Of a stretch of 64,000 nt of DNA, positions 3,859-57,421 are shown in pieces. A model generated the notes under the pieces. That model saw only the letters and a list, made by a program, of their open reading frames with translations, was not told the origin of the DNA and ran no database searches. Location of the stretch: the NCBI GenBank assembly GCA_965140785.1, contig OZ223497.1, forward strand, positions 128,001 through 192,000. Direction: 5' to 3'. The translations under genes and the position numbers were made by a program. Every line of letters begins with the position of its first letter. Position 1 is the first letter of the stretch. The stretch is from an uncultured Ruficoccus sp. (GTDB lineage: Bacteria; Verrucomicrobiota; Verrucomicrobiia; Opitutales; Cerasicoccaceae).

Positions 3859-4547
3859 ATGTCCGTTTTTCATCATCGCCGATTTTCTCGGCCTGAGGTT
3901 TTGGCTTCGATCCGACCTGAATTGCTGCGGCGTTTTCTTACGCCCTATCAATCGTATTTTCACGGAGGTGGATTCGATATGAAGTGTCTGAATCATCGGG
4001 CCGGGCCAGTTGAGTTGACGCATCTGTCGGACGTACTGATGACGACAGAGTCGGGCATTCCTCCAGAGGTAGCGAATGCCCTCTACGCTGTCCACGAAGT
4101 GGCAGTAGAAGAGAACACGGAGCTTCTGGAAATGCTCGCGTCCTCGGAGGAGGTGCCTCTTGAGCCGGATTCGACGTTGCTGGAGCTTGCGCTCAGCCTG
4201 TGGATGAGCGCTCCGAAGGCGCTCAAATGGGTTCACCAGCATCAGTCCTGTGAGCGCAAGCGCTCTTTCGAGTATTTCAGTACGGCGGGAGATGCTTCGT
4301 CTGATTTTTCTCTGAGTGCGGAAGGGATTCGTCAGTTGGAGCAAAGTCTGTCCTATTACTTCAAAAAGAAGGATTGGGGCCATGGCTGTCGTATCAGTCA
4401 TCGTTCGCAGCCAAACGAGCACTGGTTCTTAGTCAGCCATGGTGAGCGCTATAAGCGACAGGCGACATGGGAAGAGGGTCGGATGGGTACAATTGGCTTC
4501 CGGCCTGAGCGGTATGACCTCATCATCTACGATGCCCTGACGTGCGG
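3859..4547 (+). pseudogene. Hypothetical protein of a type recalled from PVC integrative elements, truncated by the downstream IS
   Basis: ORF (RRFSRPEVLASIRPELL...FRPERYDLIIYD) runs into the IS left end and stops within it; family recognised from memory only. Confidence 0.45.
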
Positions 4548-4666
4548 TGCATGTACCATTAATTTTTAGAGAGAAGATTTGAAACAACAAGCTTACCTAT
4601 TACTGACCATGATGGCTGGCTGGATGAACCGTCAGCAGCAGCAAGTCATCGACTATTTGGTCGAGG

Positions 4667-4708
4667 TACCGAACTGAGGCGTAGCCTCGGTGACAAAGCG
4701 TAGCGCCC
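4667..4708 (+). repeat. 42-nt hairpin mini-insert 'a'
   Basis: TACCGAACTGAGGCGTAGCCTCGGTGACAAAGCGTAGCGCCC; identical at 35978-36019 and 50767-50808; empty site GAG GAA AAT CGT near 17022-17033. Confidence 0.9.
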
Positions 4709-5459
4709 AAACCGCATTCTCCGTGAGCAACTCGACATCCATGCCAAAGGCAAGCGCATCCGTTTCAATGCGACCCAGCGCAGACGCTTGGCCGAGAAAG
4801 GCCGTTGCTTGGGACGCAAGTTGCTGATGAATATCGCGACGCTGGTGACGCCGGAGACGATCTATCGTTGGCATCGCCAATTCGTCGCAATGGCTTATGG
4901 TCCGAAGGGTAGGGATCATTCCGTTGTCCATGCTCGGCGGGCCGAGCGCAATGCGCTCATCATCAAGCTTGCAGTTGAGAACTCAGGCTGGGGATACACG
5001 CGCATTCAGGGCGTGATGCAGAATCTCGGTTATCCCAAGCTGAGCACTTCGACCATCGGGGAGGTGCTGCGAGAGGCAGGTATTCGCCCGTCGCCGGAGC
5101 GTAGCAGTCGTCTGGACTGGAAGACGTTTATCCGTGTTCATGCCGATCAACTTGCGGCTACGGATTTCTTCATGGTGCCGGTATGGACGTTGCGTGGCCT
5201 GGCCATGTATCGGGTGCATTTCGTGATCGACCTGCTGACACGCAAGGTGGAGATCACGCACATCGGTTGCCAATACTCGGGCGAATTGATGCTTCAAATT
5301 GCCCGGAACCTGACGGATGCGTTCGAGGGATTCCTGACCGGCAAGAAATACCTGCTGCACGATCGGGATACTCTCTTTACAAATGTGTTCCGCGAGTTGT
5401 TGCGCAGTAGTGGCACTATCCCTTTCAGGCTTCCTGTGTGCATGCCGATGATGAACGGC

Positions 5460-5484
5460 GGGCGCCTACGCCAGCCCGCCCGGC
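5460..5484 (-). repeat. 24/25-nt palindromic mini-insert 'b'
   Basis: Inserted in the N-G-Y-A-E motif; 24-nt in-frame version at 36771-36794, whose reverse complement ends in GCGTAGCGCCC like insert a. Confidence 0.8.
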
Positions 5485-5518
5485 TACGCCGGGTGCTTCG
5501 TTAAGTCGATCAAGCGTG

Positions 5519-5555
5519 TACCGAACCTGCGAAGCGGCGACAAAGCGAAGCGCCC
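5519..5555 (+). repeat. 37-nt hairpin mini-insert 'c'
   Basis: TACCGAACCTGCGAAGCGGCGACAAAGCGAAGCGCCC at the expected Glu of SIKRECL (net +36 nt, in frame); near-identical at 36829-36865. Confidence 0.85.
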
Positions 5556-5973
5556 ATGCCTGAACAAGATGATTTTCTTCAGCGAGGATGCTCTGCGGAA
5601 AGCCATCAGCGAATACGTGCTGCATTACCATCATGAGCGACCGCATCAGGGCCGCGATAACAAAATCATCGAGCCGGATGTAGAAACCTTTCGCAATCAG
5701 GGCCCGATCCGAAAAATCGCACACCTCGGAGGGCTCCTGAATCACTACTATCGCGACCCATTACCCAAAATTGAAGAAGAGGAGGGTCGGGCCGCATGAG
5801 CTTTTCCGGTAGTTACTTTTCTTCAAAAAATGCCCGAATTCGATGCTCGGGTGACTCCTTCCCCATCGACTCATATGCCCTGAATCGGCAAAATTATGGG
5901 CGTATGATTTCGTCCTCCAACCTGCAAACGAAAGGATTCTTGGCACGCGCAAGTGACTGAGCGATGCGCGTCC

Positions 5974-6089
5974 ATGCGACTGCGTGCAACGCTACTGATT
6001 TAATTACGCCTTAACTCGAAAATGAATGAAGTTGCTGTATGCTGGTAATCAGCGACTTACGATAGGCCGTCCGCGTCCCGCCACCTCCA
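5974..6089 (+). repeat. att-like repeat copy A ending in a tmRNA/tRNA-Ala-like 3' end
   Basis: ATGCGACTGCGTGC...CCTTAACT...AAGTTGCTG-N12-CAGCGACTT...CCGCGTCCCGCCACCTCCA; homologous to 17078-17184 and 57305-57421. Confidence 0.8.
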
Positions 6090-6129
6090 GGAGACAACGG
6101 ATTGCCGTTTTGAAAACGTTTGCCGCCTA

Positions 6130-7086: not shown

Positions 7087-10000
7087 TCATTGGGTGTCTA
7101 TGACATCGAAATTGATCGGCTCCATTGGCTCCAGCCGAATCTCGTCGAGCGTCGGTTCCACGCGCGGGAAGATGTCTCGGACAGCAAGGGCTTGGCCCTT
7201 GGCGTCCACTAAGTGGAAGGCGACGGGGCTCTGTCCCAGGTTGATTGCGTAGCCGATTGTTCGACCGTTCACGTTGACGAAGCGGGCTTCTACATGGTTC
7301 GGTGCCGAGCCATTGGCGGTGCGCAGCGAGTAGGGCGCTTCGATGCCAGCCTGGAGCAGCGCGTCGGGAAGGGATTGGTTCAGACTGGCAAGGGTGCCAT
7401 CATCGATCCTGATGGCGGATTCCAGGGTGAGGGGCGGCAGGAGTTTATCCGCTTCGTCGCGTGCCAGGCTGTCGCTGCCGATCAGGATGAGGCGGACGCC
7501 GCGCTGTTCGAGTTGTGCGAGGGCATCCGGCAGTTGCGCTGAAACATGGATTGTTCGCGGAATGATCAGGGCCTGAAGATCGTTTGGAATGTTACCGGCG
7601 AGCAGGTCGCTTTCCGCAAGAAAACCGATGGACTGGTTTTGAAAGTACAGTGCCTGGTAGGCATTTTCGAGAACACGCTGGGAGCTGGTTCCGTCGTAAA
7701 TGCGCGCGGTCTGTGAGTAGAGGATGCGCGCGGGGCGGGGTGCTTCGTAAAAATGCCGGACCCGGTCCATCACGCTGTTGATGCGGATGCTTTCACGCCC
7801 GTATATACTCATGACCAGAGGCATAGTGTCCTGAGCATGCTTGAACCATTGCGCGCCTTCCCCGGCCTGCCAGAACCAGATCGATTTGTCCCGGCTGAGT
7901 GTCCACAGGTTGGCGGCGTTGAGTCCGTGCCAGGCGGCGAGCCAGAGGCTGGCACGCATATGCTCCGGGGTCGAGGGAGTGGCGTGATATTCGTTGTCTA
8001 GGATCGGCTGTTGCGGTGCGAGGCTTTTACACAGGTCAAAGGACATGGACTGGTTGCGCCACCCCAGGGCATAGGGGCCATCGGGTTCGTCCGAGACCTC
8101 GTTGTCGCCCCCGTGAGCGTCGGTCATCTGATTGATGAGAAAGCGGTCGTAGCCGTTGTCGATGCGGAATTTGGGCAACCAGCTGTGGCCGTTCATAACC
8201 TTGATGGAGGTGCGGATCTGATGGTCAGGGGCGGCGCTTTTTGCGATGTCGCCGGTCCGGGACCAGAAATCGAAGAAGCGCTGGTTGTTGAAAGTGAGCC
8301 AGTCATAGCGGCAGACAGGATGCGTGGGAAAAAGCGCGGGAAAGTTTTCGGTAGCGGCGAAGTCCGGATAATCGGTTCCCCAGGCGGCGTTGAGTGCGGC
8401 GATATTGTGGTAGCGTTTCTTCATCGCTTCGAGGAAGTTCTGCCGGGTGCGTGCGCTGATGGTTTCGATGGTGGGCTCGTTGGAGAGGTCCCAGACAACG
8501 ATATCGTCTATCAGCTTCGGGTATTTTCGCGCGAACATCTCGAAATAACAGGCGGTGGCCTTGGCCATGAACTCACGGACTTTTGGATGGTCCGGGTCGT
8601 AGTCCAGGAAATGGTTTCCCTTGAGCTTGGCATCGGGAAAGCTCTGCCCGAACCAAAGGGGGAGCTGGTTGTTGAGGACGAGGATGGAGGTGGCGATATT
8701 GTGCGCAGAGTTATTTCGCAGGGCATTCACGTCGAGGATAAGATCGACGGACGGGTCGATCGTGAGTTCGGGATCGCCGGGGACGAAATATCGGGTCGTT
8801 ACGCCGGAGATCACCTCGTAGTTGATGCCGAGGTTGTTCTTGGTCTCGCCGGTAAAATACTGGATTTTGCTTGAATAGACCTGGCCGGACAGGAAGACCG
8901 CTGAGCCGTTGGACGTGAGCGTTCCCTGATCGTAAACGATGTCAGTCACAGGTTTAACAGGAAGCAGGTGGTAGTTCCCGCTGCGGATTTCACTGAGGGC
9001 CTCGTCGAGCACGCGATCGACATCCTGGAGTTCGCGCAGGGCTAGGGTGAAGCGTTTTTCAGCCTGATCCTCCTTGATGTAGCGGTTGATAAACAGGTCC
9101 GAGACCTGCCAGGAAACGACCAGTTCCAGTGGTCGCTCAGGCCCTTCGCCTAAGGTGTCGATTGCTTTTTTTAACTGGGTCAGTTTGGTCCGGACCTGCT
9201 CGGTGAGCGGGTCGATTCGGGCCATTAGCGAAGCTGCGGAGTAGTGGTTGATCGTGACGATTTTTTCGCTGACTGTGCCGTCGATCAATTCGACGCGAGC
9301 AGCTAGCAGGTTGCCGCCATCCTGAAAATGATAAGCCGGGATGGTGAAGGCCAGTTCGGTTTCGCCGGGAGTGAAGGTGATTTCGCGCTTGTCGATCACT
9401 TGGCCGTTTAGGGTCACCGAAATACTCGCCTCGGTTTCCAGATAGCCCGTGCCGAAAATGGCGAACTGGTAGTCCTCGTGGCCGTAGAGGTCAGCGTCCG
9501 ATCCGACCACGCCCGCCGCGAAACCGGTGTCCTCCTTGTCCAAAAAAAGTATTCCGAAATCGGCCGGGTTTTTTCGGTCACCAATGCCGGGCGTCCACTG
9601 GATGAACGAGCGTTTCTCTCCGTCGCTGTCATTGACAAGCAGGTTGAACCCGAAGGCGTTCAAGTCCTCGTAGGCGACGGAGGTGATAGCTCTCCAGGGG
9701 ATTGCCAGCTCGTAGGTCGTGATTTGCGTCTCCGGGTCATGGCGCACCTCATACGAGGTGTCCCCGATGGGTGTCGGGTGGTCGGGCGGTTGGAAAAACG
9801 GATAGAGCAGTACGCCCTTCGGAGTGGCGGCTAGGCCGAACTCATAATCGTCGTGCGGGTTGAGCTGGTTCACGGAGCGGTCCCATTGCGTGTCGAAGGC
9901 GACTTGAAGGCTGTCAGCCTTCCAGAGGTTTTCGTCGTGGTAAGGTTGATACGGGGCCGGGTCAGTGACCTTTGTTTCGCAGTAAAAAGCCTCATCGTCG

Positions 10001-16847: not shown

Positions 16848-17086
16848 AGGTGTGGAGTATGCGATTTCAGGTTTTCTTGCCCCTTGGCAGCGACTTATGG
16901 TTTTTTGAAAAAGTCGTCTTGAACCCGTAAACTTTACTTTTGTTGAGCTTGATGGCCGGTGGGGGAAGCTGCGAAGTGCTGACCCATGAGCCGCCAGCAG
17001 CAAGTCATCGAATATTTGGTTGAGGAAAATCGTGTTCTTCGTGAGCAACTCGACATCCACGCCAAAGGTAAATGCGTCAATGCGAC
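16848..17086 (+). mobile_element. 5' fragment of the same IS (carries insert 'd' at 16963-16985, lacks insert a), fused to att-like repeat B
   Basis: RQQQVIEYLVEENRVLREQLDIHAKGK; upstream ~75 nt homologous to 35798 and 50591; junction at microhomology ATGCGAC. Confidence 0.8.
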
Positions 17087-17184
17087 TGCGTGCTACTCAA
17101 TGACCTTAACTGGCAAATGAGTGAAGTTGCTGGGTGCTGGTAATAAGCGACTTATGAATGCGAGTCCGCGTCCCGCCACCTCCA
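17078..17184 (+). repeat. att-like repeat copy B
   Basis: Same motifs as copy A; core CCGCGTCCCGCCACCTCCA at 17166-17184. Confidence 0.8.
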
Positions 17185-35797: not shown

Positions 35798-37247
35798 GGG
35801 GTTGAGTATGCGATTTAGGTTTCCTTGTTTCTTTACAGCGACTTATGGCTTTCTGAAAAAGTTAGCTTGAAGCCGTAAGCTTTCCGTTTGTTGAGCAAGT
35901 TGGCGGGGTGGGGGAAGCTGCGAATCGCTGATCGATTAACCGCCAGCAGCAGCAAGTCATCGACTATTTGGTCGAGGTACCGAACTGAGGCGTAGCCTCG
36001 GTGACAAAGCGTAGCGCCCAAACCGTGTCCTTCGCGAGCAACTCGACATCCATGCCAAGGGCAAGCGCATTCGTTTCAACGCGAACCAACGCAGGCGCTT
36101 GGCAGAGAAAGGCCGTTGCCTGGGGCGTAAGATGCTGATGAAGATCGCGACGCTCGTGACGCCGGAGACGATCTATCGTTGGCATCGCCAATTCGTCGCA
36201 ATGGCTTATGGTCCGAAGGGCCACGATCATTCCGTAGTTCATGCGCGGCGGGCCGAGCGCAATGCGCTCATCATCAAGCTTGCGGTTGAGAACACGGGGT
36301 GGGGATACACGCGCATCCAAGGGGTGATGCAGAATCTCGGTTATCCGAAACTGAGCACTTCGACCATCGGGGAGGTGCTGCGAGAGGCTGGTATCCGGCC
36401 TTCGCCGGAGCGCGGCAGTCGCTTGGATTGGAAGATGTTCATTCGCGTTCATGCCGATCAGCTTGCTGCCACAGACTTCTTCATGGTGCCGGTGTGGACC
36501 TTGCGCGGACTGGCCATGTACCGGGTGCATTTCGTGATCGATCTGCTGACGCGAAAGGTGGAGATCACGCATATCGGTTGCCAATACTCCGGAGAGTTGA
36601 TGCTCCAAATTGCCCGGAACCTGACGGATGCGTTCGAGGGATTCCTGACCGGCAAGAAATACCTGCTGCACGATCGGGATACTCTCTTTACAAATGCGTT
36701 CCGCGAGTTGCTGCGTAGCAGTGGCACTACCCCTTTCAGGCTTCCTCCATGCATGCCGGTGATGAACGGCGGGCGCTACGCCAGCCCGCCCGGCTACGCC
36801 GAGTGCTTCGTCAAGTCGATCAAGCGTGTACCGAGCCTGCGAAGCGGCGACAAAGCGAAGCGCCTATGCCTGGCCAAGATGATTTTCTTCAGCGAGGATG
36901 CTCGTGCGGGAGGCCATCGCTCAATACGTGCGGCATTATCACCATGAAAGGCCGCATCAGGGCCGCGACAACCAGATCATTGAGCCGGACGTGGCAACCT
37001 TTCGCAATCAAGGCCCGATCCGAAAAATCGCACACATCGGAGGGCTCCTGAACCACTACTATCGTGATCCATTACCGAAAATCGAGGAAGAGGAGGGTAG
37101 GGCCGCATGAGCTTTCCCGATAGTCACTTTTCTTCAAAAAATGCCCGAGGTCGATGCTCGGGTGACTCCTTCCCCATCGACTCATATGCCCTGAATCGGC
37201 AAAATCGCGGGCCTATGAGTTCGCCCTTCAACGAGCAAACGAAAGGA
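35798..37247 (+). mobile_element. IS copy 2 carrying inserts d, a, b and c; frameshift near 36903; right terminal IR missing
   Basis: Co-linear with copy 1 from the transposase start to GAAAGGA. Confidence 0.85.
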
Positions 37248-50590: not shown

Positions 50591-51042
50591 GGTGGGGGAT
50601 GGGGTTTTAGGATTTCTTGTTCCTTCACGGCGACTTATGATTTTTCAAAGTGAGTTTGAACCCGCAAGCTTTACTGTTGTTGAGCATGTTGGCGGGGAGG
50701 GGGAAGCTGCGAAGCGCTGACCTATGAATCGTCAGCAACAGCAAGTCATCGAGTATTTGGTCGAGGTACCGAACTGAGGCGTAGCCTCGGTGACAAAGCG
50801 TAGCGCCCATGCCTGAACAAGATGATCTTTTTAAGTGAAGGTGTTCTGCGGAAGGCCATCAGTGAATACGCGCTGCATTACCATCATGAGCGACCGCATC
50901 AGGGCCGTGATAACCAGGTCATCGAACCGGACGTGGAAACCTTTCGCGCTCAAGGCTCGATCTGAAAAATCGTACACCTCGGAGGGCTCCTGAATCACTA
51001 CTATCGCGATCCATTACCGGAAATTGACGAAGAGGAGGGCCG
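50591..51042 (+). mobile_element. IS copy 3: internal deletion derivative (insert a/c fusion)
   Basis: 5' part up to insert a joined directly to ATGCCTGAACAAG, which follows insert c in copy 1. Confidence 0.85.
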
Positions 51043-57304: not shown

Positions 57305-57421
57305 CAACGCGACTGCATGCAACTCAATGACCTTAACTGAGTCTTAACTGGTGAATTGGTTAAGTCGCTGTATGCTGGGAATCAGTGACTTACGAGTGGG
57401 TGACCGCGTCCCGCCACCTCC
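57305..57421 (+). repeat. att-like repeat copy C
   Basis: TAAGTCGCTG-N12-CAGTGACTTA and core CCGCGTCCCGCCACCTCC at 57404-57421. Confidence 0.8.

Follow-up and report, generated by a model that had tools for sequence, protein, structure and literature searches.

The described systems closest to the element reported here are the repetitive extragenic palindromes (REPs) of the REP/REPIN-RAYT system, the palindrome-associated transposable elements (PATEs) derived from IS200/IS605, the miniature inverted-repeat transposable elements (MITEs) of DDE-type transposases, the small dispersed repeats (SDRs) of cyanobacteria, free-standing GIY-YIG homing genes, Rickettsia palindromic elements (RPEs), and archaeal tRNA mini-introns. 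Here, we report the E module, a structured family of inserts (39 to 51 nt in the genome under study) within the transposase genes of insertion sequences (ISs). It was recognized in a stretch of 64,000 nucleotides, called the window below (contig OZ223497.1, positions 128,001 to 192,000, assembly GCA_965140785.1), from an uncultured Ruficoccus sp. of the order Opitutales, where two inserts, a and c, interrupt an IS481-like transposase gene. The invasion of transposase genes by this module is new; a literature search, conducted mostly at title and abstract level, returned nothing on hairpin modules within transposase genes or on GIY-YIG cassettes at bacterial tRNA genes. We consider it somewhat probable that a and c are copies, without any gene, of a very small, structured, selfish DNA module that inserted strand-specifically and spreads passively in ISs.

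PATEs derived from IS200/IS605 exceed 100 nt, and IS200/IS605 integration neither duplicates nor removes target bases. The E module resembles PATEs in having hairpins near both ends (hairpin 1 and GCGNAGC), no terminal inverted repeats, no target-site duplication, and strand specificity, but it has no conserved left-flank target, alters its target triplet, and costs the target one base; no TnpA gene with E-module ends was found in this genome. The lost base and the lack of terminal inverted repeats and target-site duplication also set it apart from DDE-type MITEs. Free-standing GIY-YIG homing genes and mobile endonuclease open reading frames (ORFs) with a duplicated gene terminus include those of the T4 Seg proteins and the fungal mitochondrial mORFs. 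They find a parallel in one relative (genome G004, below), where a small GIY-YIG gene, accompanied by a spare tRNA end, is placed immediately 3' to tRNA genes; the E module, in contrast, is gene-less, about 40 nt long, and enters sites sharing no flank homology with the donor, unlike classical homing. Archaeal tRNA bulge-helix-bulge mini-introns are mobile hairpin inserts of a few tens of bases, placed sense in tRNA loops. The E module is likewise a sense hairpin in tRNA loops that recurs at several sites, but its hosts are bacterial, and the tRNA copies it splits are fragments beside intact genes, with no sign of splicing.

RPEs are about 100 to 150 bp long and are kept in frame in working proteins. 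The E module is, as they are, a palindromic repeat inside protein-coding genes (RPEs are mentioned in part of PMC3733652), but it mostly breaks the frame or adds stops and strikes mobile-element genes only. With REPs, reported in the same part of that source to lie inside coding genes of Opitutus terrae (Verrucomicrobia), it shares being a short, GC-rich, noncoding, dispersed hairpin repeat. It differs in that its copies lie in transposase genes or tRNA fragments, not extragenically (27 of 27 here are in transposase frames), are sense-only, and replace a triplet; its ends bear neither a GTAG nor a CGTC tag (GTAG is seen as a loop variant alone), it has no doublet form, and the RAYT-like gene of this genome carries other repeats. 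Cyanobacterial SDRs, as Elhai et al. (2008) are said to have described them, measure a few tens of bases; their mobility was deduced from filled and empty copies of the mobile elements in which they nest. The E module is likened to them in these respects, host phylum and sequence being different. The SDR work is cited in PMC3116915.

E modules within transposase genes

The genome under study (G000; 4.36 Mb, 50 contigs, 90.85% complete; the window is C26:128001-192000) was searched as a whole with blastn for copies of the interrupted IS, and three filled and two empty copies were aligned. A covariance model (R1) was trained on 19 E-module members. Its genome scan gave 28 matches at E <= 1, 27 of which were accepted; C46:16061 (E 0.25) was rejected as a chance match, without the 3' motif and in an unrelated frame. 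Data from other samples, including run X3, were DNA contigs. The E modules of the window and their first carrier were placed as follows.

4545..6090, + strand: IS copy 1, with an rve-type, IS481-like transposase gene (blastn, alignment to other copies; ends approximate, unmapped)
4666..4709, + strand: insert a, E module of 44 nt (R1 64.3 bits, E 4.5e-13)
5518..5556, + strand: insert c, E module of 39 nt (R1 55.8 bits)
35977..36020, + strand: insert a in IS copy 2 (alignment, R1)
36828..36866, + strand: insert c in IS copy 2 (alignment, R1)
50766..50809, + strand: chimeric a/c module in the 50.7-kb deletion derivative (blastn, R1)

Copy 1 matches rve, HTH_32, and rve_3, each under its Pfam cut-off, and its frame is open except where a, c, and a smaller insert, b, interrupt it; with this copy as the query, blastn returned many full or partial IS copies across the genome. 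Insert a sits in place of the second Glu codon of VE-E-NR (hyphens in motifs set off the replaced residue or triplet, or the insertion point), where GAG is replaced with a net gain of 41 nt, the frame is shifted, and TGA and TAG stops are introduced. Insert c takes the place of the Glu codon GAG in KR-E-CL (net gain of 36 nt, in frame, stop-free). A fourth insert, d, is missing, along with a, b, and c, from two empty copies, e1 (C26:80634-81889) and e2 (C4:131355-132574), whose frame of about 395 aa is intact. In contigs of other samples, the a, b, and c sites of this IS are empty, and the IS3 site described below is filled; against a contig of run X3, the alignment skips 38 bases at c, with AG between. 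The truncated 17-kb IS fragment carries d and has an empty a site (GAG GAA AAT), and copy 1 lacks d, both as stated in an earlier reading of the letters alone (the sequence-only reading). In copy 2, insert a is identical to that of copy 1 at 44 of 44 bases, in different flanks. In the chimeric module at 50766..50809, the left flank and the body are those of a and the right flank is that of c, the approximately 810 nt between the two sites being deleted; a second a/c-type deletion derivative lies at C26:99254-99530.

Alignment with the empty copies and motif counts above shuffles bear out the earlier view that a, b, and c in copy 1, and d elsewhere, are real inserts. GCGWAGC occurs 43 times in the window (23.2 +/- 5.0 expected; 0 of 100 shuffles reach 43), GACAAAGCGWAGCGCCC 5 times with <=2 mismatches (0.03 expected), and GGGAAGCTGCGAAG 4 times with <=2 mismatches (0.60 expected; the match at 9228 is taken as chance). 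The net gains of a, b, c, and d are 41, 25, 36, and 23 nt; the lengths given earlier (42, 24-25, 37, and 23 nt) hold for d and b and are slightly off for a and c. That the segments formed part of the ancestral transposase or resemble each other by chance is scarcely credible: intact homologues lack them, they bring stops and shift the frame, and the family occurs outside this IS lineage, in unrelated genes and genomes, at E values down to 5e-12.

Inserts a and c are members of a single structured family. From 5' to 3', its members are made up of (G)TACCGAR, a hairpin whose sequence varies, CGACA, AGCGNAGCG, and either CCCA or AAGACA. Transposase frames contain all 27 accepted members, none being intergenic; the members occupy 7 distinct sites in two IS families and always lie on the coding strand. 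Because the ISs of this genome are nearly all rve-type (27 PF00665 matches against 2 PF01609 fragments), a restriction to rve transposases amounts to a restriction to ISs. The 44-nt a type also occurs in an IS3-family transposase, in two diverged lineages, where it replaces the Glu codon of DEFTR-E-CL, and a looser scan added further types, as follows.

C48:101658 and C48:103356 (the second on the minus strand): a type in the first IS3 lineage, replacing Glu of TR-E-CL
C48:54933: a type in the second IS3 lineage, replacing Glu of TR-E-CL
IS3 RD-E-CL and orfA KR-E-LG: e type, 50-51 nt (looser scan)
W-K-Y: K type, 39 nt, replacing a GAA that spans codons (looser scan)
PW-Q-N: degenerate module copy (looser scan)

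The a type is thus found at 2 unrelated sites, as is the e type. Sites a and c, IS3 TR-E-CL, RD-E-CL, W-K-Y, and KR-E-LG each have a known allele that is empty and intact; the TR-E-CL site is empty (ACCCGT GAG TGCCTG) in 11 copies of a related IS3 element, and the intact alleles for the e, K, and degenerate sites read CGC GAT GAG TGC CTC, CGG GAG CTT, TGG AAA TAC, and TGG CAG AAC. Between the IS481-like and the IS3 TR-E-CL sites, a differs solely at two loop middle bases, and differences among a copies fall mostly on the middle base of GNA loops. GNA triloops are typical of stable DNA hairpins, according to part of PMC13037366.

The junctions are constant. At each site with a known empty allele, a GAR triplet has become G, module, A; of the 7 genome sites, 6 have GAR as the triplet replaced, and one has CAG. 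At the CAG site, and at a deletion junction ending GAC, the first base is C; since the first base follows the target, it is counted as target sequence, and the module proper runs from TACCGAR to CCC or AAGAC, converting N1-A-R to N1, module, A. One target base is lost, no target duplication or terminal inverted repeats are present, and the ends are not complementary. The base after the triplet is T at most sites (GAG TGC, GAA TAT, GAA TCC), and the left flanks (CGAG, GCGT, CCGC, GCGG, CGAC, GCTG, and others) contain no conserved target of 4 to 5 nt. Target sequences, with those from the tRNA genes of relatives (see below), include TTCGAAT (T-loop), GTCGAATGC (D-loop), CGTGAGTGCC, and GAGGAGAACC. 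The sequence-only reading had rightly put a and c at a Glu codon; its parsing of them as GTACC, the original GAA or GAG, and a remainder does not hold, as the GAR inside GTACCGAR is independent of the target codon.

The stems of hairpin 1 differ by subtype and are still complementary (CTGAGGC/GCCTCGG, CTGTGCC/GGCACGG, CTGC/GCGG). Covariation was examined in a model-fitted alignment of 52 matches (44 distinct rows), in which the paired share of cells is 82.8%, compared with 70.8% in shuffles (none of 500 is as high) and 22-62% in slid controls; both-sided changes occur at 7 of 9 pairs, a count equaled or exceeded in 25 of 500 shuffles. Rfam E-value scans of 9 loci gave tRNAs and chance matches only and no known RNA family; hammerheads, other ribozymes, and other known RNAs were set aside on these scans. 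Loose regular-expression and model scans for a larger master element in this genome returned short forms only.

Occurrence across the order and at tRNA genes

The exact module pattern occurs in 1 other genome among 200 others of the order. R1, run over 150 genomes of the order with a cut-off of E <= 0.001, has matches in 15, and 27 matches were inspected in context. IS3-type transposase genes are hit in six genomes, including the following.

G115: module at DNGP-E-F
G011: module at RD-E-CL
G060: module at ID-E-YTRECL; 44 filled, 5 empty (exact), 8 empty (<=3 mismatches)
G083: module at ID-E-YTRECL; 30 filled, 4 empty (exact), 10 empty (<=3 mismatches)
G032: module at ID-E-YTRECL; 3 filled, 6 empty (exact), 7 empty (<=3 mismatches)

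The empty allele in the last three genomes is ATCGAT-GAA-TATACGCG. A typical filled copy in G060 has two modules, each in frame with one TGA, and two copies in that genome have an uninterrupted rve domain (346-aa frame) and could act as helpers. G060 is laden with ISs (114 rve matches; loci L082, L090, L096, and L107), and the 44 filled copies of its one IS3-type element with two mini-modules are a large burst for a seemingly disabled IS.

Copies of tRNA 5' or 3' ends flank the module in 8 of the 14 other genomes, in two arrangements. In the first, units (some in tandem) lie directly 3' of intact tRNA-Ser, -Arg, -Pro, or -Gln genes in the order spacer, inverted T-arm copy, module, and direct copy of the tRNA 3' end, which brings its 3' flank where examined; the module replaces the GAA of the T-loop (TTC-GAA-TCC). 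In the second, found upstream of tRNA-Ser genes, the 5' flank and the initial 20 nt of the tRNA are present as copies; the module comes next and replaces the GAA of the D-loop (GTC-GAA-TGC). A tRNA gene was present at 10 of 12 loci scanned, about 60-330 nt away and always on the module's strand; TTCGAA is palindromic, yet the module keeps the tRNA's strand, and it does so at L110 as well. The interrupted tRNA copies are fragments beside intact genes, and the 5' end of the module, GTACCGAGG, equals the tRNA-Ser stretch immediately before its T-loop. In the genome under study, no module splits a spare tRNA end, all members being within IS genes. A metagenome scan gave 3 loci, with two modules 3' of tRNA-Ser.

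Two unrelated metagenome contigs (L057, L059) have a module with the hairpin CCCGCG-TCY-GCGGGG near a tRNA-Ser gene. Records from Pelagicoccus and Opitutaceae (L019-L024, L033-L039) contain a 33-nt short form, GTACCGAGCGANNGCGACAAAGCGAAGCGCCCA, in a conserved core of about 55 nt, flanked by CTTCG and AAGCCGACCCACCT, outside transposases and with no obvious tRNA; one 77-nt variant is internally expanded. A MITE of about 90 nt, as in these taxa, was sought in the genome under study, and none was found.

These junctions bear on whether any dedicated enzyme is needed. Microhomology-mediated repair or ectopic gene conversion, templated by tRNA-linked or IS-borne copies, might suffice: IS copies recombine often, the module's 5' end matches tRNA-Ser as described, and a GAG TGC CT flank is common to c, TR-E-CL, and RD-E-CL, with GAA TGC G in the tRNA-Ser D-loop. 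The TGC flank is, however, absent from a, W-K-Y, and KR-E-LG; microhomology alone would give ragged junctions, whereas the same junctions recur at GAR in 6 of 7 sites and in T- and D-loops; and the module keeps the tRNA's strand at the 10 of 12 loci with a tRNA gene, and at L110, in spite of the palindromic target. We regard this explanation as unlikely.

Among candidate enzymes, PF01541 gave one long, UvrC-like match each in the genome under study, G094 (a sister species), and G033. In G004, it found four small GIY-YIG ORFs, one of them at a contig end and the other three within about 250 nt downstream of tRNA genes for Asn, Ser, and Phe. One G004 locus reads tRNA-Ser, inverted T-arm, E-type module (R1 E 7e-4), tRNA 3'-end copy, and GIY-YIG ORF; at another, the same GIY-YIG gene, shortened, lies between two modules. 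At a further G004 locus (L109, G004:C14:55400-55900), a tRNA-Asn gene is followed by a GIY-YIG ORF of about 85 aa, a simple hairpin (ATCCCGACGTGTCGGGAT), and a second tRNA-Asn copy that extends from the anticodon loop to the 3' end plus 39 nt of flank. L109 is a cassette of the same kind as the loci with module and GIY-YIG gene, with a different hairpin.

The sequence-only reading had suggested looking for an HUH/RAYT mobilizer. The genome does have two Y1_Tnp genes (RAYT/TIRYT-like; 309-aa proteins in 1,006-bp units that are 99% identical), both outside the window.

C10:480126-481055: Y1_Tnp unit
C43:224705-225634: Y1_Tnp unit

A miniature IS200/IS605-like or REP-like element, moved as single-stranded DNA by such a Y1 HUH transposase (RAYT/TnpA), would have the two hairpins, the strict strand choice, and the absence of terminal inverted repeats and target duplication that the E module displays; the GNA triloops and the REPs within genes of O. 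terrae noted above also fit. The Y1_Tnp genes are flanked instead by inverted repeats of the AT-core GAAGGGGTCAKGTCAATAATTTAAAT type, unrelated to the E module, and bear no E module themselves. With left flanks that share no tetra- or pentanucleotide, one target base lost, and no GTAG or CGTC end tag, this mobilizer is quite unlikely. Stand-alone pairs of the GAAGGGGTCAKGTCAATAATTTAAAT repeat (about 90 nt) occur near the Y1_Tnp units. Outside the window, an AT-rich stretch at C39:273300-274640 encodes a retron-type reverse transcriptase (331-aa frame) with a long perfect msd-like hairpin directly upstream; retron multicopy single-stranded DNA was rejected as a source of the module, as this hairpin, at the genome's one reverse transcriptase gene, is unrelated.

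Insertion, spread, and decay

From the observed family, its sites and orientation, the empty alleles, the mosaicism of the IS copies, and the link to tRNA and nuclease genes in relatives, we infer an enzyme and an insertion chemistry. On the favored reading, of a gene-less selfish module carried by ISs, the module would be placed at the DNA level, strand-specifically, in the sense strand, at GAR triplets usually before T. In this genome, it has hit codons in conserved motifs of IS3- and IS481-type transposases, breaking the genes. Within an IS, it could increase passively when intact copies mobilize the disabled IS in trans, by recombination or gene conversion between IS copies, and by module-module recombination that yields internally deleted IS derivatives. 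The same module is the junction piece of tRNA-gene cassettes in other genera of the order. Primary insertion may be the work of a small GIY-YIG nuclease or another trans-acting enzyme that is no longer encoded here, so that the copies in this genome would be mostly relics. A more ambitious version is possible, though doubtful: the E module may be the mobile core (30-50 nt) of a new class of selfish DNA, inserted strand-specifically at GAR(T) by a very small, structure-specific GIY-YIG nuclease, with tRNA T- and D-loops (where the duplicated end would keep the tRNA alive) and conserved Glu codons of rve-type transposases as targets, and may act as a heritable IS inactivator.

The IS copies are mosaics. 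Copies 1 and 2 differ at 1 of 75 positions around a and at 10-15 of 52-75 in neighboring windows, and copy 2 differs from e2 at 3 of 225 positions in one stretch and at 8-22 per 75 elsewhere. Recombination or gene conversion between IS copies therefore moves inserts from backbone to backbone, which accounts for the identity of a in copies that are 9% apart. Internally deleted IS derivatives occur in the window at 50.7 kb, at C26:99254, and in an IS3 element at C10:469904; they were made by recombination between two modules in one IS. Filled copies also decay: copy 2 has a frameshift, the C4 copy has a high rate of nonsynonymous substitution (dN), and the copy in the sister species G094 has stops.

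Between copies 1 and 2, both filled, the ratio of dN to the synonymous rate (dS) is 0.08 at a dS of 0.44, because the copies are mosaic. Taken at face value, this ratio would suit a mechanism by which modules are removed or bypassed at the RNA or translation level (as a mini-intron, by a ribosome hop, or by stop read-through), leaving filled ISs active; so would a copy 1 that is open apart from its inserts, the sense-only orientation in tRNA and protein genes alike, and the in-frame modules of G060, with one TGA each and 44 filled sites against 5 exact (8 with mismatches) empty ones. Mosaicism explains the low ratio, however, and neither the net lengths (41, 25, 36, and 47-48 nt) nor the stops (TGA, TAG, none) follow a rule. 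Given the decay of filled copies (the frameshift of copy 2 and the G094 stops), the lack of an Rfam match, and the fact that interrupted tRNA copies are fragments, we consider bypass very unlikely. Ribosome hopping was rejected in particular, as site a has no matching pair of take-off and landing codons, although c and the IS3 site do (CGY, CGC).

Several points weigh against the favored reading, of passive spread after enzymatic insertion. No dated insertion event and no within-strain polymorphism of the module were seen, and the homologous sites that are filled in distant ISs could be old insertions carried by IS transfer. IS3 transposases are said to prefer to act in cis, which makes the 44 disabled copies of G060 awkward for purely passive spread. 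By PF01541, no small GIY-YIG gene is present in the genome under study, and tblastn with three G004 nucleases against it gave a best E of 0.78; the nuclease link, which does exist in the order, comprises two loci of one genome only, and G033 has 6 modules and no small GIY-YIG gene. A homing-type nuclease alone leaves both entry without flanking homology and the constant loss of one base unexplained. As to structure, nearest-neighbor DNA folding energies are no better than those of shuffles (z -2.2 to +0.7), so the evidence is that of covariation, which supports rather than proves the predicted hairpins, as the alignment is model-fitted and kinship inflates the counts.

Smaller inserts and significance of the family

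The remaining inserts of the IS481-like copies in the window are as follows.

5456..5480, + strand: insert b, 25 nt, GC-rich, palindromic, just before the catalytic-Glu motif (MMN-GYAECF; alignment)
16963..16985, + strand: insert d in the truncated 17-kb IS fragment (motif search)
35912..35934, + strand: insert d in IS copy 2 (motif search, alignment)
50701..50723, + strand: insert d in the 50.7-kb deletion derivative (motif search)

Insert b, restricted to this IS lineage, was seen in 4 copies at a single site, and a contig of run X3 lacks it (25 bases left out at 5456). Part of it repeats the adjacent CTACGCC, and it may be a local templated insertion. Insert d (23 nt), likewise restricted to this IS lineage, was seen in 8 copies at a single homologous site, one of these copies being a diverged relative (C50:87997); it is also present in G094. 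The R1 scan of the window gave no match at b or d. Two earlier statements on b were not sustained: on the opposite strand it reads GCGTAGGCGCCC, with one G more than the end GCGWAGCGCCC that it was held to share with a and c, and the distant relative at 63.8 kb said to lack it gave no blastn match with copy 1, no transposase frame being listed at 62.8-64.0 kb.

A 28-nt mini-module, f (TTCACGAGCGNAGCGAGAAGGCCTGACA), was observed in IS3 orfA at KE-N, in diverged IS3 lineages, with 5 copies in the genome under study; it also occurs in G060 (L090), from another family of the order.

C10:628366: f
C25:51584: f
C25:73460: f
C48:103738, minus strand: f
C49:2050, minus strand: f

Inserts b, d, and f each contain a GCGNAGC-type mini-hairpin, and entry into nonhomologous sites is demonstrated for the E family alone; the earlier proposal of one very small mobile family is supported for a and c and not for b and d, with one site each. 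A repeat of about 113 nt (65-76% alike) lies at window positions 5976-6088, 17071-17183, and 57309-57421, its first two copies trailing IS copy 1 (6.0 kb) and the truncated IS fragment (17.1 kb), respectively; this repeat may belong to the right end of the IS or be independent of it.

If inserted by an enzyme, the E module would be among the smallest mobile DNAs known; its junction, at which one base disappears and none is duplicated, is unusual, and its strand rule is strict. A small nuclease able to set a defined 40-nt cassette at a short motif would also be interesting as a tool. Hairpin-split tRNA ends with tiny nuclease genes and broken IS genes are now tied together. The module knocks out transposases repeatedly at conserved motifs (DE, DNGxEF, RDECL, and the motif by the catalytic Glu) and seeds internally deleted, nonautonomous IS derivatives, and it thereby shapes the life and death of IS families in these genomes.

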